Shown: piece by piece, positions 10,254-30,590 of the stretch
How positions within the stretch are numbered: the stretch's first letter is position 1
Layout: every line of letters begins with the position of its first letter
Source: a virus
DNA: 43,501 nucleotides
Direction: 5' to 3' (one strand)
Virus record (IMG/VR): IMGVR_UViG_3300008050_000097
Translations under genes and position numbers: made by a program
The notes under the pieces: generated by a model
The model's database searches: none
What the model was told of the DNA's origin: nothing
Seen by the model: the letters and a program-made list of their open reading frames with translations, nothing else

Positions 10254-10266
10254 TTGACATAATTGG

Positions 10267-10340
10267 CATCCCAATCGTCTAATTTGGCAGGACACCGGCA
10301 AGAGATGTCGGAAATGCAGGTTCGAGACCTGCTGGGATGT
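10267..10340 (+). tRNA. tRNA-like gene with non-canonical anticodon loop (possible pseudo-tRNA)
   Basis: Acceptor CATCCCA/TGGGATG and T-arm GCAGG-TTCGAGA-CCTGC are good; anticodon stem CCGGC/GTCGG closes loop AAGAGAT lacking U33. Confidence 0.4.
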
Positions 10341-10346
10341 TTTCCT

Positions 10347-10418
10347 GAAAGTGTAGCTCAGTGGTAGAGCACTGGCATTTGGCGCCAGGTGTCGTAGGTT
10401 CAATTCCTACCATTTTAC
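10347..10418 (+). tRNA. tRNA-Gln(TTG)
   Basis: Cloverleaf: D-arm GCTC..GAGC, anticodon stem CTGGC/GCCAG loop ATTTGGC, T-arm GTAGG-TTCAATT-CCTAC; CCA not encoded. Confidence 0.8.
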
Positions 10419-10793
10419 TAAACAGGAACGCCTGCACCTGCGTTAAGGTTGCGCGGGCTGGCCGGAACCCGTAAAGCAAGAGAAGGCAAACAAACAGGCT
10501 TATGCGGCTCCAGGGTGAGTAAGCATACATGACCGTAACGTGAAGAACCAACCCTATGGGGCGGACACGAGTCGGAAGGTCACGGGCAGAGTGGTGAGGT
10601 AGTCGCTGCTGAGATTACTCAGCTTAATTTGCTGTTGCACATTGCTCTGCCCAAATTTCAAGAAGGAGAAAGATTGTGCAAGCAATTGTTAGGCATATTG
10701 AAACAAAGAGCATGTACGTATGCTTTTCATGCGGGCAACCCGGATATCGACTTCCAGGCTTTGGACGAATGGAACCACACTGTAAGGAGCACC

Positions 10794-10994
10794 ATGATGA
10801 GCAAGCAGACTGATTTTCAACTTCCAGAAGCTTTGCAGGGTGTAATTGCAAATCATCTTCTTTACAGCTTTGAACCTGTAACAGATTATCAGTTTTTGAC
10901 TGATGATGAAAAGCGCATTTTTACACGTTCGCAGTATGAAGAACTACTGGCTTTCCTTGACAGTATCAAGGAAATTGATGAATTTGAATCGTGA
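10794..10994 (+). CDS. hypothetical protein
   Basis: ATG with RBS AGGAGCA inside longer listed ORF. Confidence 0.3.
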   Translation: MMSKQTDFQLPEALQGVIANHLLYSFEPVTDYQFLTDDEKRIFTRSQYEELLAFLDSIKEIDEFES

Positions 10995-11086
10995 GATATG
11001 GCTTTTGATATCTTTTGGTTGTAACAGCACACAGCTGAATACTTAAATGAACCAAAGGATCATTGATAGTTGAATAGATAAATTTT

Positions 11087-11162
11087 TCCTGGGTAGCTCA
11101 ATTGGTCGAGCGCCGTGCTGTTAACACGGTGGTTGGGGGTTCAAGTCCCTCCCCGGGAGCCA
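11087..11162 (+). tRNA. tRNA-Asn(GTT)
   Basis: Anticodon arm CCGTG-CTGTTAA-CACGG, T-loop TTCAAGT, encoded CCA. Confidence 0.85.
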
Positions 11163-11169
11163 AATAAAT

Positions 11170-11239
11170 GGTACTATAGCTTAAAGTAAAGCCCTTGTTT
11201 GTAACAAGGAAGATTCGGATTAACGCCCCGATAGTACCA
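11170..11239 (+). tRNA. tRNA-Thr(TGT)-like, organelle-like reduced structure
   Basis: 70 nt, AT-rich; acceptor GGTACTA/TAGTACC, perfect anticodon arm CCTTG-TTTGTAA-CAAGG, but 4-bp T-stem with 9-nt non-GTTC loop and no CCA. Confidence 0.45.
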
Positions 11240-11248
11240 AACTTTTAA

Positions 11249-11324
11249 TGCGGAGTGGAGAAGTGGTTATCTCGCTGGCCTCATAAGCCGGAAATCGGTG
11301 GTTCGAATCCACCCTCCGCAACCA
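11249..11324 (+). tRNA. tRNA-Met(CAT) (elongator or Ile2-type)
   Basis: Anticodon arm CTGGC-CTCATAA-GCCGG, T-arm GGTGG-TTCGAAT-CCACC, CCA encoded; paired 1-72 so not initiator-like. Confidence 0.85.
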
Positions 11325-11329
11325 ATCAT

Positions 11330-11409
11330 TGGGTTGTATCCCCTCCGCCTGATAAGCAGTTGAAAGGGTAGCCGGTTGCACGATGGTTCAAATCCATCCA
11401 ACCCAACCA
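11330..11409 (+). tRNA. degenerate tRNA-like element (3' half canonical, no recognisable D/anticodon arms)
   Basis: Acceptor TGGGTTG/CAACCCA + ACCA, T-arm GATGG-TTCAAAT-CCATC; interior holds CTGATAA (Ile-GAT-like loop) but without proper stems. Confidence 0.35.
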
Positions 11410-11430
11410 AATCAAGATGCACGAGAAACA

Positions 11431-11658
11431 ATGAAGAAGCTTTTTATCACACTCACTATGCTCCTACTTTTGTCAGGGTGTGCTCATCTTCCAGATACAA
11501 AGGGCCATTGTACAAAGGAGTTTCCCATCAAGGGAAACTTTGAATCTATGGTGTATCATACAACGGAAAGTGGTTACTACTGGCAGACAGTTGCAGAATG
11601 GTGTTTTGAAACTGAGAAGAATGCAAGGACTGCTGGCTATCGATCTGTGAAGAACTAA
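11431..11658 (+). CDS. lipoprotein
   Basis: MKKLFITLTMLLLLSGC: signal peptide with lipobox LSGC. Confidence 0.55.
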   Translation: MKKLFITLTMLLLLSGCAHLPDTKGHCTKEFPIKGNFESMVYHTTESGYYWQTVAEWCFETEKNARTAGYRSVKN

Positions 11659-11675
11659 AGAGCTTGCCAGAGAGC

Positions 11676-11707
11676 ATCTCCGTGAAAGAAATGTAGTTGT
11701 ATAATAG
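11676..11707 (+). promoter_or_regulatory. conserved promoter-like motif ATCTCCGTGA-N11-TTGTATAATAG
   Basis: Upstream of lipoprotein gene 11743. Confidence 0.45.
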
Positions 11708-11742
11708 AGATAGGCAATCAAACCGCAAAAACTGGAGTAACC

Positions 11743-12102
11743 ATGAAGCGTGCATTTCAACTGAGCTTGGCACTTGCTTCCATTGTTTTTCTTGCTGGAT
11801 GTCCGCTTCCACCGAGTAATGATGACGATTCAGCAGTAGTTTCTGAAATCGTCATGGAAATTCATGATGACGCGTACGCAATTACAATTTGCGAAATTCC
11901 AGCGTGGTTTGATAACGAAGTGCGGAGCAACATGCGCTGTAAGGACTTCTCTGCTGTAAAGATTTGGCCGAACGGTCTTGATGATGATCCAGCGTATGAC
12001 ATTATTGCAATTGATTGCTCCATGCCAATTCTTGGTGAAGGAGTTTCATGCGATATTAAAATGTGGAACGCACCTCCTTTGACTGGAGAAGAGCAGGAAT
12101 GA
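11743..12102 (+). CDS. lipoprotein
   Basis: MKRAFQLSLALASIVFLAGC lipobox LAGC; RBS GGAG. Confidence 0.55.
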   Translation: MKRAFQLSLALASIVFLAGCPLPPSNDDDSAVVSEIVMEIHDDAYAITICEIPAWFDNEVRSNMRCKDFSAVKIWPNGLDDDPAYDIIAIDCSMPILGEGVSCDIKMWNAPPLTGEEQE

Positions 12103-12368
12103 AAAAGCAATCGTGGTGGGCGAAATACAAAGAAGGGCGAAATGCCAAAAGATCTGCCAGGCTATGCGCCCGCGACATTCATAGCGTTGTTAGTTGGGAT
12201 GGCACAGCTTACGGTAGAAATGGTTACTTTAATGGGACCGAGGAATTTGTCTGGGCATGCGGTGTCTGCGATTTTGTGCATGATCCGTTGAGCAGTATCA
12301 GAACTGCAAGAGCACGTGAAAAAGAAATTGCATTGTGCCTGGAAGCGCTTCGCGCGCAGAACCTATAA
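12099..12368 (+). CDS. hypothetical protein
   Basis: ATGA overlap with upstream lipoprotein gene; 89 aa basic N-terminus. Confidence 0.4.
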   Translation: MKKQSWWAKYKEGRNAKRSARLCARDIHSVVSWDGTAYGRNGYFNGTEEFVWACGVCDFVHDPLSSIRTARAREKEIALCLEALRAQNL

Positions 12369-12374
12369 AGAATT

Positions 12375-12461
12375 GGGGATGTGGCGGAATTGGTATACGC
12401 AGCGGACTCAAAATCCGTGGGCTCAACGGCCGTGTGGGTTCGAGTCCCACCTTCCCCACCA
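12375..12461 (+). tRNA. tRNA-Leu(CAA)
   Basis: Type II tRNA: anticodon loop CTCAAAA, long variable arm, T-arm GTGGG-TTCGAGT-CCCAC, CCA encoded. Confidence 0.85.
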
Positions 12462-12468
12462 AATATTT

Positions 12469-12544
12469 GCGCGGATAGCTCAGTTGGTAGAGCAGGAGCT
12501 TTACAAGCTTCATGTCGCAGGTTCGAGCCCTGCTTCGCGCACCA
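12469..12544 (+). tRNA. tRNA-Val(TAC)
   Basis: Anticodon arm GGAGC-TTTACAA-GCTTC, T-arm GCAGG-TTCGAGC-CCTGC, CCA. Confidence 0.85.
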
Positions 12545-12556
12545 AATAGGATAATC

Positions 12557-12646
12557 ATGAGATTGAAGAAGAGCAAGCAGCGTTGCAGGTATTGCGGAGG
12601 CCCAATATGGGTGCCAAATCAACCCTGCGCAACTTGTTTCAAATAG
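12557..12646 (+). CDS. 29-aa zinc-ribbon-like peptide
   Basis: MRLKKSKQRCRYCGGPIWVPNQPCATCFK; CxxC-x12-CxxC; RBS AGGATAA. Confidence 0.25.
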   Translation: MRLKKSKQRCRYCGGPIWVPNQPCATCFK

Positions 12647-12656
12647 ATAGAATACT

Positions 12657-12745
12657 GGAAGGTCGCCAGAGGCTGGTGAGCTGGAGTCGCCTGCTAAGCG
12701 ATGGGTGTAACTGCCCCAAAGGTTCGATTCCTTTACCTTCCGCCA
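12657..12745 (+). tRNA. tRNA-Ser(GCT)
   Basis: Type II; anticodon arm GTCGC-CTGCTAA-GCGAT; T-arm AAAGG-TTCGATT-CCTTT; CCA. Confidence 0.85.
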
Positions 12746-12759
12746 AATAAGGAACAGAA

Positions 12760-13002
12760 ATGATTGATTACGCAAAACTTGCAAGCGAAATTCGTGAACT
12801 GGTGCCCCGTAACCGCCCAGGTGATAGAGCGCTGCTCGCGTCACGGGAAAGCAGCATTAGATATTCTGCACCAGAGATTGCCGGGCTTCATGTGACTGAA
12901 TTGGTTGATACAATTATGAGTATTTGTGGAGCTGGGCCTGAGTTTGAAGAAGAGTGGCAGCTTTCTATTTTCAACACATGGAACGCAGCACACGATCGAT
13001 AA
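12760..13002 (+). CDS. hypothetical protein
   Basis: 80 aa; RBS AAGGAAC. Confidence 0.45.
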   Translation: MIDYAKLASEIRELVPRNRPGDRALLASRESSIRYSAPEIAGLHVTELVDTIMSICGAGPEFEEEWQLSIFNTWNAAHDR

Positions 13003-13004
13003 AT

Positions 13005-13101
13005 GGAGAGGTAAGTCGAAAGATTCTGGGTATCGACTGCAGTCTTGAAAACTGTTAGGGGCTAACGCCCTGTCAGGGTTCGAATCCCTGTCTCTCCGCC
13101 A
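13005..13101 (+). tRNA. tRNA-Ser(TGA) with enlarged D-loop
   Basis: 97 nt; anticodon arm GCAGT-CTTGAAA-ACTGT; variable arm; T-arm CAGGG-TTCGAAT-CCCTG; D-stem AGTC/GACT encloses 17-nt loop. Confidence 0.7.
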
Positions 13102-13149
13102 TTTCACTGAAGGACCTAGTCATGAGCATTTTAACTGACAGAGTAGAAG

Positions 13150-13419
13150 ATGGCTGAGTACACTGAGAAATGGACAGTTGAATATTACGTCACCAGCGGG
13201 CTTGACCCTGAGATTGCAGGCATACTCTTTAAGAAGGGCTGGACGATCGTAGGACCAGCCAAGGCCATCAAGGTACTTGAAATTCCAGACAGGACTGCCA
13301 TCTGCGATCTTAACTACATTGCCCGCACAGCTTTCTTAAATGACGCAGAACTGTACAGCACAGCAGCTACCATGAGTGCGTTCGCAAGAATTCGAATTTT
13401 CAAGACAGAGTGGTATTGA
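13150..13419 (+). CDS. hypothetical protein
   Basis: 89-aa ORF. Confidence 0.45.
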   Translation: MAEYTEKWTVEYYVTSGLDPEIAGILFKKGWTIVGPAKAIKVLEIPDRTAICDLNYIARTAFLNDAELYSTAATMSAFARIRIFKTEWY

Positions 13420-13423
13420 TTGC

Positions 13424-13648
13424 ATGAGCGCATCGATGGAGCGTATAGGTTGTGATGAGTGTCGTGTCTGGTTCGATATTGAAGAAGACGCAGTTTTACC
13501 AGAGCATAAACGCTGGGTAGAAATTGATGGCTACAATACTGCTGGCGAAGAACATTGCCCGGGCAGTTGCACGCCAGGGCGGCGGACATTTAACGCGCGA
13601 AGCGAAGAAGTGACACAAAATGCAGCAAGCCAGCCTGGACTTGAATAA
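13424..13648 (+). CDS. hypothetical Cys-containing protein
   Basis: ATG 5 nt after upstream stop; CDEC...CPGSC. Confidence 0.4.
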   Translation: MSASMERIGCDECRVWFDIEEDAVLPEHKRWVEIDGYNTAGEEHCPGSCTPGRRTFNARSEEVTQNAASQPGLE

Positions 13649-13658
13649 AGCGCCGGTT

Positions 13659-13690
13659 TTTTCCGTTTAACACCCAACGTGTTATAATAG
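13659..13690 (+). promoter_or_regulatory. conserved promoter-like motif TTTTCCGTTT-N12-TGTTATAATAG
   Basis: Upstream of 13739 gene. Confidence 0.5.
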
Positions 13691-13738
13691 TAACAGGAAT
13701 AGAAAACCCGTAAAACGGTTTGAATAACGGAGATTAGA

Positions 13739-14149
13739 ATGTCTTACATAACTGTATATCCAATCCTTGATTTGGAGGCTTCGCCTACCAACCAGGAGGT
13801 GTTTGACAACGCTGCGTCATTTATCCTAGGCCAGGGTCCATGCATTACTTCCGACGTGACCCCCCGCTATAAGTATCGCAGTGGAGGAAAGGCTTGCGCC
13901 ATGGGTGCATTCATGACTGATTACGAAGCTGCCGTGGCTGACGAAGAGGGTTGGGGTGCTAGCTCAGTAGTTTCGAAAGCTACAAGGTTTAGCCAGTATG
14001 GAGAGCTATTTTCACACCTGGTGATTGCTCATGATCTTGCTGCTGACTGCGATCCAATTGATTTTCAAGCAAAATTTAGAGATGAAATGAGAAGGGTGGC
14101 CGAGGTTTTTTCTCTTGACGCAAGCAAGCTTGAGGAAGCCAATATTTGA
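13739..14149 (+). CDS. hypothetical protein
   Basis: 136 aa; preceded by TGTTATAATAG promoter-like motif and RBS GGAGA. Confidence 0.5.
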   Translation: MSYITVYPILDLEASPTNQEVFDNAASFILGQGPCITSDVTPRYKYRSGGKACAMGAFMTDYEAAVADEEGWGASSVVSKATRFSQYGELFSHLVIAHDLAADCDPIDFQAKFRDEMRRVAEVFSLDASKLEEANI

Positions 14150-14154
14150 TTTAT

Positions 14155-14230
14155 GCCCCCGTAGCTCAGTGGCCAGAGCGTTCCCCTTGTAAGGGAAGGG
14201 TCACCCGTTCGACTCGGGTCGGGGGCTCCA
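14155..14230 (+). tRNA. tRNA-Thr(TGT)
   Basis: Anticodon arm TTCCC-CTTGTAA-GGGAA; T-loop TTCGACT; CCA. Confidence 0.85.
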
Positions 14231-14245
14231 CTTTTAGGAACTACG

Positions 14246-14440
14246 ATGAGTTGTGATACAGAAAGAAAGCATCCGCACGGACATTGTACTGAGCATTGCG
14301 GAGAGTGCGGTGAAACTGCCAAGGGTGTGATCTGCGGCGTTTGTGCGCAGGTTCTGCAATCAGAGTTTTGCATTCGCTGCCACCAAGGCAAGGTGATCCC
14401 TGGAACAACGATGTGTGAAGATTGCTGGAAGGCTCGGTAG
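14246..14440 (+). CDS. Cys-rich zinc-binding small protein
   Basis: 64 aa with >=5 CxxC pairs. Confidence 0.45.
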   Translation: MSCDTERKHPHGHCTEHCGECGETAKGVICGVCAQVLQSEFCIRCHQGKVIPGTTMCEDCWKAR

Positions 14441-14542
14441 TAATTGTGGTACCGCTCTGGGTCCTAGAAGTGGGAATGATTCTGGCGCTAATTGCCGGCA
14501 TGCTAATTGGCTGGGGCTTTAGAGGCATAAAGGAAAATTGAT

Positions 14543-14618
14543 TCGCGGGTAGTTCAGTTGGTTAGAACATCGGGTTGTGATCCCGAAGACGCGGGTTCAA
14601 GTCCCGTCCTACGATCCA
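14543..14618 (+). tRNA. tRNA-His(GTG)
   Basis: Anticodon arm TCGGG-TTGTGAT-CCCGA; T-arm GCGGG-TTCAAGT-CCCGT; acceptor with one C-A mismatch; CCA. Confidence 0.75.
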
Positions 14619-14634
14619 TTAACTGAGGATGAAG

Positions 14635-14928
14635 ATGAGCATTGCAGAGAAGGTTGCTGAGCAAATCAGGGAGGCAATGGCGCAGCGCGCTGCCATTGAT
14701 AGAAATATTTCGCGACTTGTTGCGTATGCTTCGCTTCCTGAGAATCCGCAAAAGGCTGAGATTGTGTTCGACAATAGCACCTCTGTTGTTCTTCGTTCAA
14801 GCGCATATCGTGGCGCCAGTGAAGAAGAACGTGAACTTTATGAATTTGCAAAGCCAGAATTGACAGCACTTCTTAAGAAGATTCGTGCTTTCTCTGCTGG
14901 ACAACTTGCGCTTGAGGAGATTGAGTAA
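14635..14928 (+). CDS. hypothetical protein
   Basis: RBS GAGGA 8 nt upstream of ATG. Confidence 0.45.
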   Translation: MSIAEKVAEQIREAMAQRAAIDRNISRLVAYASLPENPQKAEIVFDNSTSVVLRSSAYRGASEEERELYEFAKPELTALLKKIRAFSAGQLALEEIE

Positions 14929-15086
14929 TGTTTGAGACTGTTGCCACGATCGTTTTTCTGTTTATGACAACCATCTGGTCAAGGGATGGTTGGACAAACT
15001 TGATTATCAAGGTTGCATTTGCACTGATGACAGCCTGGGCCTTCGCAGAAGCGATGATTGAATCAGGCTTCGTCATCGCAGCTTAA
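14928..15086 (+). CDS. small membrane protein (52 aa)
   Basis: TAATG overlap with upstream gene; two hydrophobic segments. Confidence 0.3.
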   Translation: MFETVATIVFLFMTTIWSRDGWTNLIIKVAFALMTAWAFAEAMIESGFVIAA

Positions 15087-15094
15087 CTGAAATT

Positions 15095-15182
15095 GGGGCG
15101 GTAGACCCGTAGGGGGCGGGTGGGGATTGTAAATCCCTTCTGTGTATGCAGCCCGGAAGTTCGACTCTTCCCTGCCCCACCA
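15095..15182 (+). tRNA. tRNA-Tyr(GTA)
   Basis: Bacterial type II Tyr: anticodon arm GGGGA-TTGTAAA-TCCCT, long variable arm, T-arm GGAAG-TTCGACT-CTTCC, CCA. Confidence 0.8.
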
Positions 15183-15199
15183 TTAACTAAGGAGAAATC

Positions 15200-15448
15200 A
15201 TGAATGATAGTGTAACACTACTGAGCGGCAAAAAGAACAAGCCAAGTCTTGTAGTTGCTCAGAAGCTTGTCGGTGGATACGTTCAATTGATTGAGCTTGC
15301 ACCAGTTGATGGTGATAAGACACAGATGCTTATTGATGAAGAAGGTCTTCTGAAGGGATTGCCGGGAAATCCTGAGGCTTCGTTCATTGCTGGGCAGCCA
15401 ATCGTTGGCCCTGCTGTTGTGTTGGTCGGCGACGCCTGCTGGGATTAA
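15200..15448 (+). CDS. hypothetical protein
   Basis: RBS AAGGAGAAATC. Confidence 0.45.
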   Translation: MNDSVTLLSGKKNKPSLVVAQKLVGGYVQLIELAPVDGDKTQMLIDEEGLLKGLPGNPEASFIAGQPIVGPAVVLVGDACWD

Positions 15449-15455
15449 AGCTTAT

Positions 15456-15611
15456 AGGACCATAGTTCAAGTGGTAGAATACGGCCGGGAATGATGCTCA
15501 TGCTTGCGCTAGAAACCATGTGCTGCAAGGTGAATTTGGTTGTTTGCATTGCAACACAAGCGTAGTGAGAAATCACTGGCTGGGATGCAGGTTCGAATCC
15601 TGCTGGCCCTT
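15456..15611 (+). tRNA. tRNA-like gene interrupted by ~91-nt insertion in anticodon arm
   Basis: 5' acceptor AGGACCA + D-arm GTTC-AAGTGGTA-GAAT and 3' T-arm GCAGG-TTCGAAT-CCTGC + acceptor TGGCCCT are canonical. Anticodon stems CGGCC/GGCTG flank an insert with an AGTGA-GAAA-TCACT tetraloop hairpin. Confidence 0.45.
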
Positions 15612-15621
15612 CATTTAAAAT

Positions 15622-15698
15622 ACGCCCGTAGCTCAGCTGGATAGAGCAGCGGATTCCTAATCCGCAGGTCGCAGGTTCGAGTCCTGCCGGGCGTACCA
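15622..15698 (+). tRNA. tRNA-Arg(CCT)
   Basis: Anticodon arm GCGGA-TTCCTAA-TCCGC; T-arm GCAGG-TTCGAGT-CCTGC; CCA. Confidence 0.85.
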
Positions 15699-15734
15699 TT
15701 CATAGGTGCTGATAACAATACTGGAGAAGAGAAC

Positions 15735-15950
15735 ATGGCTGAATTTAGCGTAAAGATTAAAAGAGTTCTTGAACAAGAAAGTGAAGTAACGCTTTCAATT
15801 AAGGGCATGTCACAGTGGGCTGTCGGGGAAGTGGCTAGCTCGCTGGAGGAAGTGCTTCGTGAAATTGTTGAAAGTGATGCTGATTCTGTCACTTGGGGCT
15901 CTGAAGACGAAGAGATCACAATCGAGAGTGTCAGGTACACTGGAGAGTAA
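15735..15950 (+). CDS. hypothetical acidic protein
   Basis: RBS GGAGAAGAG. Confidence 0.45.
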   Translation: MAEFSVKIKRVLEQESEVTLSIKGMSQWAVGEVASSLEEVLREIVESDADSVTWGSEDEEITIESVRYTGE

Positions 15951-15951
15951 G

Positions 15952-16212
15952 ATGTATAAGTTTGTAATTTTGATTGCCGCGATGTTCATGCTCAGCGGCT
16001 GTGTTAGCTCTGACGCAGCTACCAGTTATGCCGCGAGGGCGTACCCTGACTGCACAAACCACCAGTCACTGGGTCACCACTATGGTGGCGAAAATGGCGC
16101 TTCGCAGACAGAAGTCCGCATGACCTGTGACGGGGTGAATAAATCAATCACAGTCAAGTGTGTATTTGGGTTTGGAATCATCAGCGATACAACCTGCCAC
16201 GAGAATAACTGA
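15952..16212 (+). CDS. lipoprotein
   Basis: MYKFVILIAAMFMLSGC lipobox LSGC. Confidence 0.5.
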   Translation: MYKFVILIAAMFMLSGCVSSDAATSYAARAYPDCTNHQSLGHHYGGENGASQTEVRMTCDGVNKSITVKCVFGFGIISDTTCHENN

Positions 16213-16218
16213 GCAGTT

Positions 16219-16584
16219 ATGTTCAAGTGGGTACCTGGCCGGCAAGGTGGCGATTATTTCAAGGTGGAGCTGCTCAACTCAAAACGCCTGCGCATGCACT
16301 TAGTTCTACTTAAGCTCCCAAAGGGTGTGCACATTGCATATCACAAAGACCCAGCGCCTGATGGATTCAAGCATTGGCGCGTTAACTTTGTTTTCTGGCG
16401 GGGAGCGACAGGTTCGAGACTTGTGCAGGGGCAGTCACTATTTGCTCGTGCACGTGCGGCCTATGGAGGCTTTTTCGCCAATAGGCTGAACATCTTCAGG
16501 CCTGATGAGGTTATCCATGGCGTATCACGTGCCAGTGAGACAAGCTACGCACTCAGCTTTGGTTGGTTGCAGAGAAAGAAGTGA
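16219..16584 (+). CDS. 2OG-Fe(II) oxygenase superfamily protein (small)
   Basis: HKD (HxD) ... H ... RAS (RxS) spacing consistent with a double-stranded beta-helix oxygenase. Confidence 0.45.
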   Translation: MFKWVPGRQGGDYFKVELLNSKRLRMHLVLLKLPKGVHIAYHKDPAPDGFKHWRVNFVFWRGATGSRLVQGQSLFARARAAYGGFFANRLNIFRPDEVIHGVSRASETSYALSFGWLQRKK

Positions 16585-16586
16585 TT

Positions 16587-17999
16587 ATGCGTGAATTTCG
16601 ACAAAAGGGCAGGACAGCTGCGCTTCTTTGGACAATTGAGCTCCATGGAGCAACAGAGACAGTTCGTTACGGCCAGCTCGGTGGGCAGATGCAGGAGGCA
16701 TCCCATACTTACGCTGGTGTCAACATTGGTAAGTCAAATGAGCTAAGCCCAGAGGAATTTGCCCAGACACGGGTCGATAAGAAGATTGAAGAGCAGCGCA
16801 GGGCAGGCTACATTGAATATGTTGATGGTGTTGCCACAGAAGTGCGAGTTGAAGCTGTAAGCGCCGACGAGCCATTGCCAACAAATCTCTGCTTCTACAA
16901 GCCGAACAACAAGCCTGGCGGCAAGATGCTCAAGCTGATTGAGGATGGGAAAGCCATCTTCGGCCGCAAGCGTGACGGCATGATGCACGTGATTCGCGTT
17001 ACTGCTGACAGCACTGAAGTGTACTCCCGCCGAATGCTTCAGTCGATGGACAAGGAACCTGGGAAACCGTGGGCACTTCGTTACCCGAAGATTGTAGAAG
17101 AATTTGAAGCGATGGCTGAGGTCGAAATCTTCCCACCCAATACTGTGTTCCTTGGTGAGATGGTCATGGACCGCGGTGGTGTCGATGACTTCACGCACGT
17201 CGCTCGTGTTACAAAGTCACTGACTCATGAATCACTTGCCATCCAAGCAGCGGACGGTTGGGTGTCGTATTATATCTGGGATGTTGCCATTTGGGGCGGT
17301 GTTGAAGTTGCCAAGACGATGTCTTTCGCCGAAAGGCAAAAGCTCCTTGAGCCAATGAACAGGGAGTGGCTTAAACTAGAGAACTGGTGGGTGCTCGGAC
17401 ATACACCAATTCTGCCTCTGGATGTTTGGACACCGAGTGATTTGCAGCTTGCAACTGATCTTGAAGATGAGTTTGCGGATTTTCCGCCTGTGCTTACAAT
17501 GGCAACTGATCTGGCGAAGGAGTTGGATTGGGAAGGCTTCGTGGTTGTTGATCCGACAGCTGTCTATGGTGAGAAGGCGTTCAACTTCAGGGGTAAGCCC
17601 GACAGGCCTCGTGGCATGTGTGCCAAGGTAAAGCCCTCCTATGAGGATGACTTCATCGCTCGCTGGGATCCTGAAGACGACATCGGCGAGTACGGCAAGG
17701 GCAAGCACCAGGGCATGTGCGGCAGTGTCGGGCTTTACCAGCTGAATGAGGCTGGGGAAGAGGTATGGATCTGTAAGGCTGGCGGCGGCATCAAGGATAA
17801 GTTCACAAAGGAATATCCCGATGGTCTGCTGCGGGTAGATCTAAGTGACAAAAGCATCTACCCGCTTGTTGTAGAAGTTGAATACGATTCACGCACGTAC
17901 AGGTCTGATGGTGATAAAACTGACGCACTTCGTTTCCCACGAATTGTTCGTTGGCGTGATGATAAGGCGTACGAAGAGTGTGTGAATTCTAGATTGTAA
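16587..17999 (+). CDS. ATP-dependent DNA ligase
   Basis: Motif I FGRKRDGMMHV (KxDG), motif IV DWEGFVVVDP, motif V CAKVKP; ATG with purine-rich RBS. Confidence 0.7.
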   Translation: MREFRQKGRTAALLWTIELHGATETVRYGQLGGQMQEASHTYAGVNIGKSNELSPEEFAQTRVDKKIEEQRRAGYIEYVDGVATEVRVEAVSADEPLPTNLCFYKPNNKPGGKMLKLIEDGKAIFGRKRDGMMHVIRVTADSTEVYSRRMLQSMDKEPGKPWALRYPKIVEEFEAMAEVEIFPPNTVFLGEMVMDRGGVDDFTHVARVTKSLTHESLAIQAADGWVSYYIWDVAIWGGVEVAKTMSFAERQKLLEPMNREWLKLENWWVLGHTPILPLDVWTPSDLQLATDLEDEFADFPPVLTMATDLAKELDWEGFVVVDPTAVYGEKAFNFRGKPDRPRGMCAKVKPSYEDDFIARWDPEDDIGEYGKGKHQGMCGSVGLYQLNEAGEEVWICKAGGGIKDKFTKEYPDGLLRVDLSDKSIYPLVVEVEYDSRTYRSDGDKTDALRFPRIVRWRDDKAYEECVNSRL

Positions 18000-18061
18000 A
18001 TAACAGCGCCAGTGTCATTGGCGATGATCCTAAGTGTATGCCAAAATTACTACTCACTCAT

Positions 18062-18138
18062 AGGAGGGTGGCCAAGTGGTAAAGGCAGCGATCTTATGAG
18101 TCGATGATGCGTGGGTTCAATCCCCACCCCTCCTACCA
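18062..18138 (+). tRNA. tRNA with anticodon TAT (Ile, AUA-decoding)
   Basis: Acceptor AGGAGGG/CCCTCCT, 3-bp D-stem, anticodon loop CTTATGA (U33, R37), T-arm GTGGG-TTCAATC-CCCAC, CCA. Confidence 0.55.
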
Positions 18139-18294
18139 TTTCAGTGGAGCAAAATGTCTGTAACACATGTGCAGGGCGATTACTTAAATCAGATTGTGAT
18201 ATTATTGGTCACGGCTGCAATTGCATGACAACTTAGGCAGACTTGGCCACATGTTTACGATGCCGATAGGCTCAACACCAAGCGTAGTGATCCG

Positions 18295-18606
18295 ATGAAG
18301 CTTGGTACGTTTGCAGTTGCAGTTGCATCGAATCGTGATGAAGAGCCAATGCACGTCTACAACCTCTATACACAATACGGTTATGGCCATGGCCGACATG
18401 CTGAGTACGCAGCAATTCGTTTTGCAATGGAGGCAATGCGAGCTGACGTTCTTGAAGGGTGTAATTTGAGTGCGTGGGGTGAAAGAGATCCAAAGATCGG
18501 ATTTCCAAAAATCGGAGCTGGTCTTGGTGGCGGTGACTGGGACATTATTGAAACGATCATTGATACAGTCTGGCATGACTTTGATGTGTTTGTGTACAGT
18601 CTTTGA
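18295..18606 (+). CDS. hypothetical protein
   Basis: 103 aa; internal repeat HVY(D/N). Confidence 0.4.
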   Translation: MKLGTFAVAVASNRDEEPMHVYNLYTQYGYGHGRHAEYAAIRFAMEAMRADVLEGCNLSAWGERDPKIGFPKIGAGLGGGDWDIIETIIDTVWHDFDVFVYSL

Positions 18607-18613
18607 ATTGCAT

Positions 18614-18646
18614 GTTTCCGCGCTGGAAACTACATTGTACAATATA
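18614..18646 (+). promoter_or_regulatory. conserved promoter-like motif GTTTCCGCGC-N12-TGTACAATATAA
   Basis: Upstream of 18664 peptide and tRNA-Ala. Confidence 0.45.
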
Positions 18647-18663
18647 AACAGGAATGAAAGGAA

Positions 18664-18798
18664 ATGAACATGGATAACGACGACGATTTCTTTGGCACCT
18701 TCTTCAAGGGAGGCGCTGTTCTTATTGTAGTTGGCATCATTGCAAATTTGGTTTTGTTTGGTGGCGCAGCTCTGATCATTAAGGCACTGTTCTTTTAA
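18664..18798 (+). CDS. small membrane peptide (44 aa)
   Basis: RBS AAAGGAAATG; acidic N-term plus one TM helix. Confidence 0.3.
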   Translation: MNMDNDDDFFGTFFKGGAVLIVVGIIANLVLFGGAALIIKALFF

Positions 18799-18805
18799 AG
18801 CTTTT

Positions 18806-18881
18806 GGGGACATAGCTCAGTTGGGAGAGCGGTTGCTTTGCAAGCAGCAGGTCAGGGGTTCGATCCCCCTTGTCTCCACCA
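18806..18881 (+). tRNA. tRNA-Ala(TGC)
   Basis: G3:U70 identity pair; anticodon arm GTTGC-TTTGCAA-GCAGC; T-loop TTCGATC; CCA. Confidence 0.85.
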
Positions 18882-18904
18882 AATTCGAAATAGAAACATA
18901 GATA

Positions 18905-19483
18905 ATGGATAGAATTAGCAAAGCTTGGAAGCATGCAGAAGACAAATTCGATGGTGTGCTGTATGGAGATTTTTCATATTTGAAGCACCTTCGTGATGCG
19001 CATGATGTGCTTGTCTCTGTTGGGATCATGGAAAAGACGCTGAGAATTGCAGTAATTCTCCATGACAACATTGAAGACACAAGCGATACTGTGCAGGATA
19101 TCGAAGAGTTGTTTGGTTGGCAAATTGCCCAGCTTGTCTGGGCAGTCTCTGACGGCCCGGGTGAAACTCGAAAAGAGCGGCACCAGAACACGTATCCAAA
19201 AACAGCAAGTGTTGAAAATGCTGTGATTGTAAAGCTGGCTGACAGAATTGCAAATGTCAAGGCCAGTGTTGGGTCAATTCTTAAGCGTGGAAAGGTTGAC
19301 AAATTTTCCATGTATTTGGGTGAGAGAGAATCGTTTATGCTCGCCTTGAATGCTTCGAAGCATTCACCTTCGTACGATACGAATGTTGACTCTTTGTGGC
19401 GCATGTATGAGGCTCAATACGATCTTGGGCTTGAGCACCTTGCGCAGCTAGATAGAGAGAATGCTCGGGCTTGGCGAACTTGA
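18905..19483 (+). CDS. HD-domain metal-dependent phosphohydrolase
   Basis: H...HD...D motifs: HLRDAHDVL, ILHDNIEDT, KLADRIAN. Confidence 0.6.
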   Translation: MDRISKAWKHAEDKFDGVLYGDFSYLKHLRDAHDVLVSVGIMEKTLRIAVILHDNIEDTSDTVQDIEELFGWQIAQLVWAVSDGPGETRKERHQNTYPKTASVENAVIVKLADRIANVKASVGSILKRGKVDKFSMYLGERESFMLALNASKHSPSYDTNVDSLWRMYEAQYDLGLEHLAQLDRENARAWRT

Positions 19484-19505
19484 TGAAGAACTTGAAGGAA
19501 AATAA

Positions 19506-19582
19506 CAGGGTGTAGCTCAGTTGGTAGAGCGCCGGTCTTGGGGTCCGGAGGTTCGCAGGTTCGAGACCTGCCACCCTGACCA
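19506..19582 (+). tRNA. tRNA-Pro(TGG)
   Basis: Acceptor CAGGGTG/CACCCTG; anticodon loop CTTGGGG; T-arm GCAGG-TTCGAGA-CCTGC; CCA. Confidence 0.8.
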
Positions 19583-19600
19583 TTTAAAATGAGGAAGATA

Positions 19601-19828
19601 ATGAAGAACATGGAAATTGTGACAAAGGCAGGAACCCACTTCAGGCTGACACGAGCTGGGTTTTTGTACCGTGAAGGACAGCGCCTGGGCAAGGTTTTGG
19701 CACCTAGCATCGATGATGTAGTGGCTTCCATGAAGGGCGAGCCTCGACGAGGAAACAATTTTCGACTCATTCGCTACGTTGTTGATGGAAGTCACGCTGG
19801 TTTCCATACACAGTACATTAGCTGCTAG
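19601..19828 (+). CDS. hypothetical protein
   Basis: ATG with RBS GAGGAAG. Confidence 0.4.
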   Translation: MKNMEIVTKAGTHFRLTRAGFLYREGQRLGKVLAPSIDDVVASMKGEPRRGNNFRLIRYVVDGSHAGFHTQYISC

Positions 19829-19838
19829 GGAGAGTAAG

Positions 19839-20084
19839 ATGCGACCGATTTGGAAAATTACTGAAGAGATTCTAACTGACTGGCAGAATGTTTCTCCTCA
19901 CGCCCAACCGTATTTGAATGCAATGCTTTATTTGGATGACTTTACATCACAGTACGGTCTGGACGATGGCGAATCTGTTGTGTTGTATTTTCTCTCAAAC
20001 GCAACGACTTGGCGGGGAGAAACTGCACGAAGGATCAAGGCAGAGCTCCGCAAGGATCTCAAAGAATACAGGAGGCGCATATGA
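19839..20084 (+). CDS. hypothetical protein
   Basis: RBS AGGGAGAG. Confidence 0.4.
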   Translation: MRPIWKITEEILTDWQNVSPHAQPYLNAMLYLDDFTSQYGLDDGESVVLYFLSNATTWRGETARRIKAELRKDLKEYRRRI

Positions 20085-20272
20085 CACGCACACAACGCCC
20101 ATCAATTCTCGGTGAATACGAAATTGTAGCTGAGCCACCTGATAAGATTCTGGTCGAAGTTGAAACTAAGCTGCCTGACGGAAAGATCGCGATCTCGTAT
20201 CAGAAGTACGTGTTGGCAGAAGATGCAGTTCCGGCAGCTCCGGGCAGCCAACCTCTCTTCTTCAAAAAGTAA
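20081..20272 (+). CDS. hypothetical protein
   Basis: RBS AGGAGG; ATGA overlap. Confidence 0.35.
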   Translation: MTRTQRPSILGEYEIVAEPPDKILVEVETKLPDGKIAISYQKYVLAEDAVPAAPGSQPLFFKK

Positions 20273-20281
20273 AAAGTATCT

Positions 20282-20357
20282 GGGCCATTAGTTCAGCTGG
20301 TAGAACAAGGGACTCTTAATCCCCACGTCCCGGGTTCAAATCCCGGATGGCCCTCCA
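20282..20357 (+). tRNA. tRNA-Lys(CTT)
   Basis: Acceptor GGGCCAT/ATGGCCC; anticodon loop CTCTTAA; T-arm CCGGG-TTCAAAT-CCCGG; CCA. Confidence 0.8.
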
Positions 20358-21110: not shown

Positions 21111-21968
21111 ATGCCGGAACCTGTAGCAATTATTGGTGACATTCACGGTTGCTTTGATGAGCTCCTTGCACTGGAAGCAGAGCTCGACAGGCAGTTCCCA
21201 GGTGGCATCCGCCGTGTCTTTGTCGGGGATCTTCTTGACAAGGGGCCGAAGCAGATTGAACTGCTTGACTATGTCATTGAGAAGGGCTATGACGTTGTCA
21301 TGGGCAACCATGAAGACAAGCACCGGCGCTTCAAGAAGCATGACATTGAAAAGGGTCCCAAGAACAATCCGATGCGGAAGTCCAGGCGCGGAAGTCCAGT
21401 GTCTGGTACAGGCGGGTTTGTTGAAATCAACGAGCTCCTGACTGCGGATCACTATGCATTCCTTTGCAGTCTTCCTCTCGCCATCAGGATTCCTGAGTGG
21501 GAATTGATCGTCATTCACGCCGGCATTCCAGCAGCAATGCAGAACATCGGTACAGAAGTCACTGCACCATTCATTACACTTGCAGGAAAAACCAAGAAGT
21601 TCTTTGGAACGCTCTGTTGGACGCGTTTCATCAGCGGAAGCAAGGGTATGCCCGTGATGCTTGGAAAAGAAGGGCCTGAAGATTCCTACTGGGCAGAAGT
21701 GTACGACGGGCGGTTCGGAACTGCAGTCTTTGGACACCAGCCATTCAAGGGACCAGCAGTGTTTCCATTCGCCAGAGGCGTGGATACAGGCTGCGTTTTC
21801 GGAGATCAGTTGTCGTGTATTGTATACACTGACGATGACCCTGATGGTTGCTTCATCAGTGTGGAGGCCTTGGCTGCGCATGCAGAACCATGGGGTCCCC
21901 GTGATGGCTACTGCATTGATGGTAAGTTTGTTCGAGTTGAGCGTAAGATTAAAGAAATCATCGGTTGA
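21111..21968 (+). CDS. PPP-family Ser/Thr protein phosphatase (lambda PPase/ApaH-like)
   Basis: IGDIHG, GDLLDKG, GNHE metallophosphatase signature in PPP order. Confidence 0.7.
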   Translation: MPEPVAIIGDIHGCFDELLALEAELDRQFPGGIRRVFVGDLLDKGPKQIELLDYVIEKGYDVVMGNHEDKHRRFKKHDIEKGPKNNPMRKSRRGSPVSGTGGFVEINELLTADHYAFLCSLPLAIRIPEWELIVIHAGIPAAMQNIGTEVTAPFITLAGKTKKFFGTLCWTRFISGSKGMPVMLGKEGPEDSYWAEVYDGRFGTAVFGHQPFKGPAVFPFARGVDTGCVFGDQLSCIVYTDDDPDGCFISVEALAAHAEPWGPRDGYCIDGKFVRVERKIKEIIG

Positions 21969-24957: not shown

Positions 24958-25608
24958 TTAAGCTTCCAGGGCAACGATGTAGTCTTCGCCGTACAGTTTT
25001 ATTGCAGCGTCGCGACGCCAAGCTGGGTTGGGTTGCTCAGCAATCTTTTTTCCTGCTGGGACTGTGTTCATGACACGCTGGGCTTTTGCAATATGCTTCT
25101 GCAACAGGCCTCCACCAGTCCAGTTAGTTTGAATCAGGTGGGACCGCAATCTTCCCATATCTTTTTCATCGTCCAAGATAATGAGGCGCTGGTCGACAAG
25201 TCCGGCCAGCGAAATGTTTTGCAAAAGCCATTGCTCAATTTCAAGACCACGAATATTGTCGTAGTATGCTGCTGTGTTTGCAAGAGAGAATGTTGGCGTT
25301 CTGCCAATGACATCAGCAGCCAACCCTTTTTCACCAAGCATCTCACGCAACTCGTCCAACTCATGGTGCAATCGCCAAGAAGAGCTGATGACAATATCAG
25401 CGCCTGTTAGCTCAGCGATTCTTTGCACATGATCAACCCTAGCTGGGTCAACCATGTGTGCCCAGGTGTCAATAGAGAAATCTGTCGTTAGCCGAGGATC
25501 GTCATTGCTTAACAGCGCCTGTACGTCAGGGTGTAACTTCGCAGCCTGTGTGTTCCACTTAAGCGTGTTAAGTACGCCGTCGACATCAAGAAAGATGAGC
25601 GGGTTCAT
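24958..25608 (-). CDS. HAD-superfamily phosphatase (polynucleotide 3'-phosphatase-like)
   Basis: N-terminal FLDVDGVLN (DxDGx) motif as in T4 Pnk phosphatase domain. Confidence 0.6.
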   Translation of the reverse strand: MNPLIFLDVDGVLNTLKWNTQAAKLHPDVQALLSNDDPRLTTDFSIDTWAHMVDPARVDHVQRIAELTGADIVISSSWRLHHELDELREMLGEKGLAADVIGRTPTFSLANTAAYYDNIRGLEIEQWLLQNISLAGLVDQRLIILDDEKDMGRLRSHLIQTNWTGGGLLQKHIAKAQRVMNTVPAGKKIAEQPNPAWRRDAAIKLYGEDYIVALEA

Positions 25609-26283: not shown

Positions 26284-27465
26284 CTACTCCTTCACATCGT
26301 CAGTTACAGGCAATTCCCACGCTCGGGGTGCCTTACCGTTATTGAGCTTTCGAACAACCCACTTCTTGTAGTCAGGATCAGAGTCACTGTAGTATTCCTG
26401 AATTGCGAACTGCCAGTGATTCGGAATGTCACGCTGCGCGTCCAGGACAAACTCACGTCTTTCGAAGCCAGTCCCACCAGTAAACTCTTCAGAGTCGGCC
26501 AGATAATTTTCTACCCAATCCTGCGTGACTGATGTTGCAGTTGCTAGCAATTCATCATACGGCTTGAACGCTTCGGCCAACTGGTTCTTGTGCGGTTCAA
26601 GCAGCATATCAAGAAGTTCATCAGTCACTCCGGCGTACCATGCGTCAGCAACAGACCGTGGGGTCATACCATGAACAACTCGATGCATTGCAATATACTG
26701 CGCACCCTTAATCTTTACGCGAATGTTACGCAGCAGCTTATGGTCGTATGCGCTAACGACCCACCCCTCGTCAGTATACGGCAATAGCAGCGCTTGTTCT
26801 ACAGCCTCTGGAATACTGGGGTTGCTGACATTTGTTGCAATACTATAGCGCTTCTGTGAAAGCGTGAATGCATCTTCGCCGTACAATTCAGCCCCGAAGC
26901 GGTCGATCTTGGCTGCATTATATTCACACCCATTTCGCATGCGAATATTGAGAAGCGACAGTCGTTCATTCTCATGAGGGACAACACTTGAATTGCCGAA
27001 GCGCAGCTGCGGATAGGTGTATTCAAAGCTGAACGTTCCACCACCGAAGCTTACTGGGAAGTGCGCGGCGAGGGCGCTATCAATCCTGTTCTGCTTGATT
27101 AGCTCCCAAGCTCCGTCAATGTATTCGTTGTCGAGACTGCCGCGAGTTGATACATTTAGTACACCATCAAGGTCACACCACAAATTAATCAGCGTGCCGT
27201 CAAGCTTCTTGAGCAGAACTTCTGGTGTGTAGAGCCCGTCAACAAAGTCAGCACCAGGCTCGTGACTATTGAAGAACTTGCGCATCGGGCGGCAAACAAT
27301 CTTGCCACGATGGAACACAACCCCTCGCGCTTCAAGCGTGATTTCATTCCACAGTCGACTATTTGCAGTTTCACTGGTGTAGTTGAATAGCTCGTATTCA
27401 TTCTTTGCAGTGCGCCGGATGCTGCCCTGCTCAGCTGCAGCACGAAAGTCTTCGATGTTGAGCAT
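26284..27465 (-). CDS. RNA ligase (Rnl family nucleotidyltransferase)
   Basis: Motif I KKLDGTL (KxDG) and surrounding ligase/capping-enzyme NTase motifs; ATG with RBS GGAGAG. Confidence 0.7.
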   Translation of the reverse strand: MLNIEDFRAAAEQGSIRRTAKNEYELFNYTSETANSRLWNEITLEARGVVFHRGKIVCRPMRKFFNSHEPGADFVDGLYTPEVLLKKLDGTLINLWCDLDGVLNVSTRGSLDNEYIDGAWELIKQNRIDSALAAHFPVSFGGGTFSFEYTYPQLRFGNSSVVPHENERLSLLNIRMRNGCEYNAAKIDRFGAELYGEDAFTLSQKRYSIATNVSNPSIPEAVEQALLLPYTDEGWVVSAYDHKLLRNIRVKIKGAQYIAMHRVVHGMTPRSVADAWYAGVTDELLDMLLEPHKNQLAEAFKPYDELLATATSVTQDWVENYLADSEEFTGGTGFERREFVLDAQRDIPNHWQFAIQEYYSDSDPDYKKWVVRKLNNGKAPRAWELPVTDDVKE

Positions 27466-27466
27466 C

Positions 27467-29660: not shown

Positions 29661-29867
29661 AATCGCCTTCATTGGCTCAGGACAACCACCGCGAATAAGA
29701 AGCAGCGCTGGGTCCTTCAGTTCGATAGCAAGGATCTTTTCAGCTCGAAGCGTAATTCCCAAATTTGAAAACATCACACCGATGACGACGTCACCACTGT
29801 CTTCAAATCCTTGAACAACAAAACGGGAGCCATCGCTGAGTACCCAAACGTCTCCAATGTTAATCAT
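29649..29867 (-). CDS. hypothetical protein
   Basis: 72-aa ORF. Confidence 0.4.
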   Translation of the reverse strand: MINIGDVWVLSDGSRFVVQGFEDSGDVVIGVMFSNLGITLRAEKILAIELKDPALLLIRGGCPEPMKAIISA

Positions 29868-30586: not shown

Positions 30587-30590
30587 GCGC

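Follow-up and report, generated by a model that had tools for sequence, protein, structure and literature searches.

A tRNA-derived gene at positions 15456-15611 (+ strand) of the window, which is the whole 43,501-nt stretch of viral DNA analysed here, has a complete tRNA body in which the anticodon loop is replaced by 91 nt of other sequence. The reading that we prefer, with a probability of roughly 0.4, is by analogy that of an unspliced, non-decoding tRNA-shaped RNA like the T4 species 1 RNA. At present the element is a single-lineage oddity with an unusual anatomy and a candidate function only.

To survive the attack of hosts on tRNA, large phages are equipped with tRNA arrays and RNA-repair enzymes, and several reports, like the scan described below, show that over-long, interrupted tRNA-like genes also occur in them. 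The T4 species 1 RNA has been an orphan for 50 years. The element provides a clean case in which the tRNA body is intact yet no excision recovers a decoding loop, and this separates the question of whether the insert is an intron from the question of whether the gene specifies a tRNA mimic. A stable, unspliced RNA would join T4 species 1 RNA as evidence for a phage tRNA-mimic class, and a spliced one would demonstrate that protein-dependent tRNA splicing takes place in a bacterial virus. Either a decoy or a splicing substrate, if true, would be a new player in the arms race of tRNA cleavage and repair.

In a table of conserved tRNA positions, the element has all 11 of 11 core bases (U8, A14, G18, G19, A21, G53, U54, U55, C56, A58 and C61) and 20 of 21 stem pairs, and the R15-Y48 pair is also present. 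The numbering runs from A1 (15456) to the discriminator U73 (15611), exactly the limits given by the first-pass annotation, which had been made from the letters alone and had described near-perfect pairing of the two halves. The sole mismatch is A4.C69 in the acceptor stem (AGGACCA/UGGCCCU). The spacing of about 91 nt that had been claimed between CGGCC and GGCUG is exactly 91 nt. CCA is not encoded 3' of the element, where CAU comes next. The halves were delimited by direct sequence reading, the ARAGORN intron-mode drawing and the table of conserved positions (and, for the 5' half, of pairs), with the following parts.

15456..15486, + strand: tRNA 5' half
15456-62, + strand: acceptor 5' strand AGGACCA, followed by U8 and A9
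15465-80, + strand: D-arm GUUC-AAGUGGUA-GAAU, canonical
15481, + strand: A26, directly 5' of the anticodon stem
15482-86, + strand: anticodon-stem 5' strand CGGCC, canonical positions 27-31
15487..15577, + strand: insert of 91 nt replacing the anticodon loop
15578..15611, + strand: tRNA 3' half
15578-82, + strand: anticodon-stem 3' strand GGCUG, canonical positions 39-43
15583-86, + strand: variable loop GGAU (4 nt), canonical
15587-15603, + strand: T-arm GCAGG-UUCGAAU-CCUGC, canonical
15604-10, + strand: acceptor 3' strand UGGCCCU
15611, + strand: discriminator U

Run in intron mode, ARAGORN calls a tRNA at the element, while 0 of 3000 dinucleotide shuffles of the region give a call. This call, together with the canonical placing of the anticodon stem (positions 27-31/39-43), bears out the original description, a tRNA gene whose anticodon region is interrupted. 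Neither standard ARAGORN nor the Rfam tRNA model (RF00005, gathering score 29 bits) detects the element, and at a permissive threshold the Rfam tRNA model matches its T-arm alone (15.2 bits). The exons allow no isotype assignment, the best matches being ~69% identical and scattered across many isotypes. A split or permuted tRNA, also proposed at first, is ruled out by the arrangement of the halves, which are colinear, in normal order and on one strand, 91 nt apart.

The window sequence is also present on a 175,726-bp ENA contig, and the phage is marine with a genome of ~176 kb. The element lies within a tRNA array; a DUF3846 ORF has its stop codon 8 nt upstream of it, and tRNA-Arg(CCU) (15622-15698) starts 10 nt after it. 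Two further degenerate tRNA-like genes are found within the array. No promoter-like or terminator-like site is present on the + strand between 14900 and 16000, so the element is probably co-transcribed with the array. The surrounding features are listed below, the five protein-coding ones being assigned with Pfam, PHROGs and NCBIfam.

10266..20357, + strand: tRNA array of 15-16 genes with small ORFs interleaved
2068-3042, + strand: RlaP nucleotidyltransferase
21111-21968, + strand: Pnkp-like metallophosphatase
24958-25608, - strand: HAD 'Swiss army knife' repair domain
26284-27498, - strand: T4 Rnl1-type RNA ligase
27467-28033, - strand: Pnkp-like P-loop kinase

Judged from these family assignments, the Rnl1, the Pnkp-like kinase and phosphatase, the HAD domain and RlaP are a putative full RNA heal-and-seal kit within the window. 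Its link to the element is suggestive and not specific, since such repair kits are common in large phages with tRNA arrays, where they counter host anticodon nucleases (PMC7824862). The host is probably bacterial, as indicated by the peptidoglycan hydrolases (lysozyme and M15/M23 peptidases) that are encoded in relatives of the phage.

Whether excision could restore a decoding tRNA was addressed by enumeration, with canonical geometry defined as a 17-nt arm straight after A26 followed by a variable loop of 3-5 nt. Among all 54 constructions of this kind, only the CGGCC/GGCUG register pairs, and it allows seven rejoined loops (AAUCACU, GAUCACU, GGUCACU, GGGCACU, GGGAACU, GGGAAUU and GGGAAUG). 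Both U33 and a purine at position 37 are missing from 7 of 7 of these paired-stem loops, so that simple excision cannot turn the element into a standard decoding tRNA. The ARAGORN solution ('Val-CAC', loop CUCACUG) comes at the cost of a stem shift that brings in an A.G pair, a shorter variable loop and a U at position 37. The 7 nt abutting the 3' strand (AAUCACU) would give the anticodon UCA, and a UGA-suppressor reading of this loop is ruled out by the use of TGA as the stop of 21 of the 51 genes (41%) of the window; with TGA a working stop codon, a tRNA with the anticodon UCA would be harmful. In a search for a canonical anticodon arm hidden within the insert, only 4-bp candidates were obtained, at chance level and misplaced.

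The insert is predicted to extend the anticodon stem into a long rod, in which the minimum free energy (MFE) and centroid structures are the same, with the following elements.

15482..15582, + strand: extended anticodon arm, a predicted unbranched imperfect hairpin of 37 bp
15482-88 / 15576-82, + strand: helix of 7 bp
15489-91, + strand: bulge GAA
15492-95 / 15572-75, + strand: helix of 4 bp
G15496 / A15570-71, + strand: 1x2 internal loop
15497-501 / 15565-69, + strand: helix of 5 bp
15502-04, + strand: bulge GCU
15505-10 / 15559-64, + strand: helix of 6 bp
15511-18, + strand: 8-nt bulge
Distal part of the rod: helices of 4, 5 and 6 bp with two 1x1 loops between them
15536-41, + strand: hexaloop UUGGUU
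15564..15577, + strand: local hairpin AGUGA-GAAA-UCACU, a disfavoured alternative with a pair probability of at most 0.001

The ends of the insert add further pairs to the anticodon stem, on which the predicted rod stacks coaxially, with an MFE of -37.0 kcal/mol and pair probabilities of 0.66-1.0. When stem and insert are shuffled together, z = -3.06 and 1 of 200 shuffles is as good. When only the insert is shuffled and the exon stem is kept fixed, z = -2.1, with the same energy reached by 14 of 500 shuffles (2.8%) and an unbranched fold adopted by 21%. Random genomic 91-mers placed in the stem fold as stably in 53 of 498 cases (~11%), and the insert folded alone is not significantly structured (z = -1.3). 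These figures lend modest support to a selected fold of the insert, and suggest a structure. Of the GAAA-tetraloop hairpin reported earlier, the words AGTGA-GAAA-TCACT are indeed present at 15564-15577, but the hairpin itself is not expected to form: when enforced it gives -30.9 vs -37.0 kcal/mol, a cost of 6 kcal/mol, and its bases pair long-range with 15487-15505 in the predicted rod.

In a permissive Rfam search (positions 15400-15640, E<=10), the insert was matched by no family of introns, ribozymes or other RNAs, and besides the T-arm there were only matches at chance level. A group I or II intron was rejected in the absence of Intron_gpI (RF00028) or group II matches at E<=10 and of a P3-P9 core, and hammerhead, twister, twister-sister, pistol, hatchet, HDV-like and hairpin ribozymes likewise gave no match at this threshold over 15400-15640. 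Even the smallest group I introns are more than twice as long as the insert of 91 nt. Size and the lack of any Rfam match together exclude group I and group II introns and the known small self-cleaving ribozymes, in accordance with the initial view that about 91 nt is too little for a group I or II intron.

The anticodon-intron pairing rule places one bulge on the 3' strand next to the anticodon stem and the other on the 5' strand beyond a 4-bp helix. BHB introns are defined by 2-3-nt bulges, or a bulge and a loop, 4 bp apart (PMC8707768), and the base of the rod (GAA bulge, 4-bp helix, 1x2 loop) agrees with this verbal definition. In the MFE fold the bulge of each strand is located 5' of the 4-bp helix, an arrangement that mirrors a BHB. 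When relaxed BHBs in the correct orientation were scanned for exhaustively, there were 22 candidates, against 23.8 +/- 6.6 in shuffles, and 0 of these candidates use the anticodon stem as the outer helix. Among the 78 ORFs of the window, no splicing endonuclease (EndA), RtcB, Ro/TROVE protein or RNase family was found. The self-spliced or protein-spliced intron suggested by the first-pass annotation is weakened by these results, there being neither a ribozyme family nor a correctly oriented BHB, neither an endonuclease nor RtcB among the 78 ORFs, and no loop with U33 and R37.

Several other identities were considered and rejected. For tmRNA, there is no ARAGORN tmRNA call, pair 3-70 is G-C and not G3.U70, and the D and anticodon stems are intact; as a tag reading frame, the 24-codon ORF at 15491-15565 in the insert lacks an ...AA end. 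A box C/D or kink-turn reading of AUGAUGC...GUGA is contradicted by pairing misfits, the sR19 match scoring 8.8 bits (E = 8.3). The match to Y RNA/YrlA (15.2 bits against a threshold of 69) merely spans the T-arm of the element and the D-arm of the next tRNA.

The element is carried by five metagenome contigs of independent origin (ENA, Logan and JGI; L001-L005), which are identical there save for one SNP at T-loop position 59. Genome-wide, the five contigs are ~99.95% identical, differing from the window by ~0.05%. The presence of the same sequence in five independent contigs excludes an assembly artefact, while the near-clonality of the lineage precludes a covariation test of the fold. The adjacent WGR-DNA ligase has 343 homologues, the nearest non-identical one at 48% identity, and no homologous interrupted tRNA was found in 24 IMG/VR loci and 4 contigs chosen through this ligase. 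In the closest relatives, the ligase adjoins a vault-like gene, without a tRNA array in between. A major-vault-protein-like gene is also encoded in the window. The ARAGORN intron calls in three relatives (L008, L020 and L021) are artefacts fusing neighbouring tRNAs, and that in a fourth (L010) is an ordinary tRNA-Glu.

Exact and gapped patterns representing the exons, the ends of the insert and an allele that is uninterrupted or has a short insert were searched in IMG/VR, a metagenome collection and GTDB, and returned nothing or chance matches in coding sequence; the negatives from the metagenome collection are weak, as JGI contigs carrying the sequence of the element were not returned there. 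In blastn against GenBank phages (E<=10), the whole region gave generic tRNA matches only and the insert alone gave nothing. The insert was also considered as a repeat or mobile element, and neither the window nor any fetched locus contains a second copy.

Interrupted tRNA-like genes are found in other phages. A generic scan of IMG/VR for over-long spacing between D-arm and T-arm gave at least 120 matches, and at least 25 distinct tRNA-like genes in IMG/VR are called by ARAGORN only when an insert of 30-57 nt is allowed. Among the matches listed, several such genes recur across diverged contigs, and excision restores a canonical anticodon arm in 8 of 25 genes and not in the other 17. Among the restorable genes are a tRNA-Gly(GCC) with its insert at position 37/38 (L086) and a set in which the insert follows position 28 (L079, L103/L153 and L154). 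The element belongs with the non-restorable majority of the matches listed and is homologous to none of them. Interrupted tRNA-like genes are a recurrent, heterogeneous and unexplained phage feature, of which the element is another variant.

The T4 species 1 RNA (rnaC; NC_000866, 70908-71046, minus strand, 139 nt) shares with the element its location inside a phage tRNA cluster, a canonical T-arm, paired 5' and 3' ends and extra hairpins. Both are about twice the length of a tRNA, are non-decoding and match no Rfam family, and the function of rnaC is unknown. The T4 RNA has no recognisable D-arm or anticodon stem, whereas the element keeps the whole cloverleaf save for the loop, and the fold of rnaC is much more significant (z = -4.6). 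The only sequence in common is an 11-nt T-loop word, GGTTCGAATCC, and the resemblance is thus architectural and not one of homology. By its cluster, T-arm, paired termini and length, though not by homology, the element may be placed by analogy in an informal T4 species-1-type class.

Group I introns of 200 nt or more occupy the anticodon loops of bacterial tRNAs (in cyanobacteria, Azoarcus and Patescibacteria). They have in common with the insert a position in the anticodon region of a bacterial-type tRNA gene, but the insert lacks their arrangement of a U at -1 and a terminal G that restores the loop. In the BHB introns of archaea and eukaryotes, removed by EndA and a ligase, the protein-based logic of cutting and sealing would suit the ligase and kinase-phosphatase of the phage; against this likeness, the element has bulges of the wrong handedness, no endonuclease gene in its window and a probable bacterial host. 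The Ro/Rsr-bound YrlA, like the element, joins a tRNA-like elbow to a long helical stem and has RNA-repair genes as its context. Its topology is the opposite, the ends forming the long stem and the acceptor being closed, and no Ro/TROVE gene is present in the window of the element.

The 'enigmatic' introns reported in tRNAs of the Lak megaphages (bioRxiv 10.1101/356790) are, like the element, over-long for bacterial tRNA finders and consist of tens of nt in the anticodon region. They too match no intron family and are unexplained in mechanism (bioRxiv 10.1101/356790). Unlike the element, for which no excision gives a standard loop and only near-identical copies were found, the Lak inserts are described as yielding typed tRNAs on excision, and their conservation extends across cohorts. 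The element has no sequence similarity to any interrupted tRNA example retrieved.

In the preferred reading, an unspliced tRNA-shaped RNA, 91 nt have taken the place of the anticodon loop and prolong the anticodon stem as a long imperfect hairpin. The gene would be transcribed together with the surrounding tRNA array, and RNase P and the 3'-end machinery would release a tRNA-shaped RNA of ~156 nt, as with its neighbours. Such processing is suggested by the intact stack of acceptor and T-arm and the intact D/T elbow. The insert would most likely be retained, leaving an RNA unable to read codons. If functional, the product could be a tRNA mimic, a stable tRNA-like RNA akin to T4 species 1 RNA. 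The most plausible role, which is speculative, would be that of a ligand of enzymes binding to the tRNA body, or of a decoy for them, and this would fit the conflict over tRNA cleavage and repair in which the phage invests heavily. The decoy tRNA suggested by the first-pass annotation would agree with the anatomy.

This reading is favoured by the complete tRNA body, the canonical placing of the anticodon stem and the rod that continues it; by the lack of an intron or ribozyme match, of a correct BHB and of a decoding loop, with TGA serving as a stop; and by the rnaC precedent and the context of a tRNA array with Rnl1, Pnkp, HAD and RlaP. A recent simple insertion would have left a recoverable loop and a long decay would have damaged the body, and since neither is seen, an unspliced tRNA-shaped RNA is preferred. 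Counted against it are the lack of any sign of conservation (all copies found being ~99.95% identical), a rod only modestly above chance, the A.C mismatch in the acceptor stem, a likeness to rnaC that is architectural only, and the two other degenerate members of the array, which fit decay.

The same facts are explained almost as well by a dead gene, in which one event of illegitimate recombination replaced the anticodon loop by unrelated DNA and the product, transcribed and perhaps processed, is functionless. We regard this as possible, though doubtful. It would account for the restriction of the element to one near-clonal lineage, for an insert that alone is not significantly structured and whose rod is matched in stability by 11% of random genomic 91-mers, and for the acceptor mismatch A4.C69, the unrecoverable decoding loop and the two other degenerate tRNA-like genes of the same array. 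The remaining tRNA body is flawless, however, and the paired insert ends prolong the stem without branching, whereas shuffled inserts take an unbranched form in only 21% of cases and attain the same energy in 2.8%. Large lytic phages tend to shed useless DNA, which also speaks against a dead gene, as does the conservation of interrupted tRNA-like genes across diverged contigs in other phage lineages. Alternatively, the insert could be a protein-spliced intron, cut on either side of the rod by a host or phage nuclease, with the phage kinase-phosphatase and Rnl1 sealing the halves into a tRNA with a non-standard loop, which we consider unlikely. In yeast tRNA splicing, T4 Pnkp and Rnl1 can take over healing and sealing; this competence, the complete heal-and-seal kit in the same window, and the rod base with its 3-nt bulge, 4-bp helix and internal loop all speak for it. 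The perfect anticodon arms restored in other viral interrupted tRNAs (L086, L079, L103/L153 and L154) and the enigmatic Lak megaphage introns (bioRxiv 10.1101/356790) point the same way. Set against this are the absence of U33 and R37 after every excision, bulges that mirror those of a BHB, BHB-like motifs at shuffle frequency, the lack of a recognised endonuclease among the 78 window ORFs, and the unspecific co-occurrence of the kit (PMC7824862).

A new small self-cleaving or self-splicing ribozyme within the tRNA is very improbable. A structured RNA of ~90 nt at a site where bacterial self-splicing introns occur, matching no known family, would be in keeping with it, but a known catalytic core motif and conservation are both absent, the predicted rod is plain and lacks the junctions and pseudoknots typical of small ribozymes, and the product would have no canonical loop. 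The least credible explanation is a known intron class, whether an archaeal/eukaryal BHB intron with its splicing endonuclease or a group I/II intron, and it is largely refuted. The insertion is in the anticodon region, and introns with a 2-3-nt bulge and 4-bp helix are defined (PMC8707768); the contrary evidence consists of the missing group I/II match at E<=10, the size of 91 nt, which is too small, the lack of a correctly handed BHB on the anticodon stem, the unrestorable loop, the bacterial host indicated by the lysozyme and M15/M23 peptidases of the relatives, and the absence of an EndA homologue from the window.

It is conceivable, if improbable, that the element functions in one of two new ways, as a tRNA-shaped decoy or as a substrate for enzymatic tRNA splicing in a bacterial virus. 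In the decoy version, an uncleavable double-stranded 'anticodon' rod would absorb host anticodon nucleases or other tRNA-targeting defence proteins. In the splicing version, a nuclease would excise the rod, and the phage Rnl1 and Pnkp-type enzymes would reseal the tRNA.

A word, AGUGA...GAAAUCACU, that the element has in common with a family of tRNA-like genes (L213/L221/L235) was judged coincidental; it is the 3' part of the anticodon arms of ordinary tRNA-Ser(UGA), and the rest of the elements of this family is unrelated.

Among the matches listed from a generic spacing scan for over-long tRNA-like genes in IMG/VR (loci designated by L-numbers), three independent phage tRNA genes (L079, L103/L153 and L154) carry inserts of 42-56 nt directly after position 28, immediately downstream of the sequence ...GAGCACG. 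Their identities are Ile-UAU, Asn-GUU (shared by two related contigs) and a third tRNA whose anticodon is AUU, and removal of the insert gives back a canonical loop on a perfectly paired anticodon stem of 5 bp. The inserts look like a genuine class of mini-introns at a non-canonical site. A tRNA-Gly(GCC) in L086 (3300021138_001972, 4098-4187 region) contains a hairpin insert of ~44 nt at the canonical position 37/38, removal of which restores the loop UUGCCAA.

In other IMG/VR tRNA-like genes (L038/L041/L097, L125/L141, L071, L078 and L144), the insert contains a second T-arm-like motif (GGTTCGAxTCC), reminiscent of the 'tRNA within a tRNA intron' of Lak phages, and several of these genes are found again in different contigs. 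A further family of Leu-type tRNA-like genes (L213 ~407-509, L221, L235 and L208) has common D- and T-arms and covarying acceptor stems (GGTCAGG/CCTGACC, AGTCAGG/CCTGACT and AGTCCTG/CAGGACT), with non-tRNA middles of 43-85 nt, and ARAGORN calls no tRNA in its members. Negatives from the metagenome contig collection should be interpreted with caution, as a pattern identical to the window sequence it targets did not retrieve the JGI contigs Ga0098054_1006004 and Ga0208013_1014073, which carry the identical sequence.

The tRNA array of the window includes two other odd genes:

10266-10341, + strand, atypical tRNA-like gene of only 76 nt, called 'Leu(GAG)' by ARAGORN
11170-11239, + strand, tRNA with loop UUUGUAA (anticodon UGU), Rfam 45.1 bits

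The first has an anticodon loop (AAGAGAU) lacking U33, an acceptor of 8 bp according to ARAGORN and an Rfam tRNA score of only 31.6 bits. Over the T-arm and 3' acceptor it shares 91% identity with the interrupted tRNA-derived gene. The second is not called by ARAGORN despite its Rfam match; its D-loop is short and its T-loop (UUCGGAUUAACGCCCCGA) is aberrant.

The 91-nt insert of the interrupted gene itself entirely contains an open frame:

15491-15565, + strand, 24-codon ORF (MMLMLALETMCCKVNLVVCIATQA*)

Chance would produce an open frame this long in about 1 in 3 cases, and no usably spaced Shine-Dalgarno sequence accompanies this one.

An RNA heal-and-seal toolkit is scattered over positions 2068-30694 of the window:

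2068-3042, RlaP nucleotidyltransferase
21111-21968, Pnkp-like metallophosphatase
24958-25608, HAD 'Swiss army knife' repair domain
26284-28033, T4 Rnl1-type RNA ligase and Pnkp-like kinase, in overlapping genes
29864-30694, second metallophosphatase

No RtcB, EndA or Ro/TROVE was found among 78 ORFs of the window.

The window also encodes a vault-like protein:

4716-7358, + strand, 880-aa protein with major-vault-protein shoulder, vault-repeat and Band-7 domains

A vault-protein homologue is uncommon in a phage, and this one is kept in related phage contigs of ~190 kb (L032, 6706-9309; L033, 913-3516), separated by one gene from the WGR-type ATP-dependent DNA ligase.
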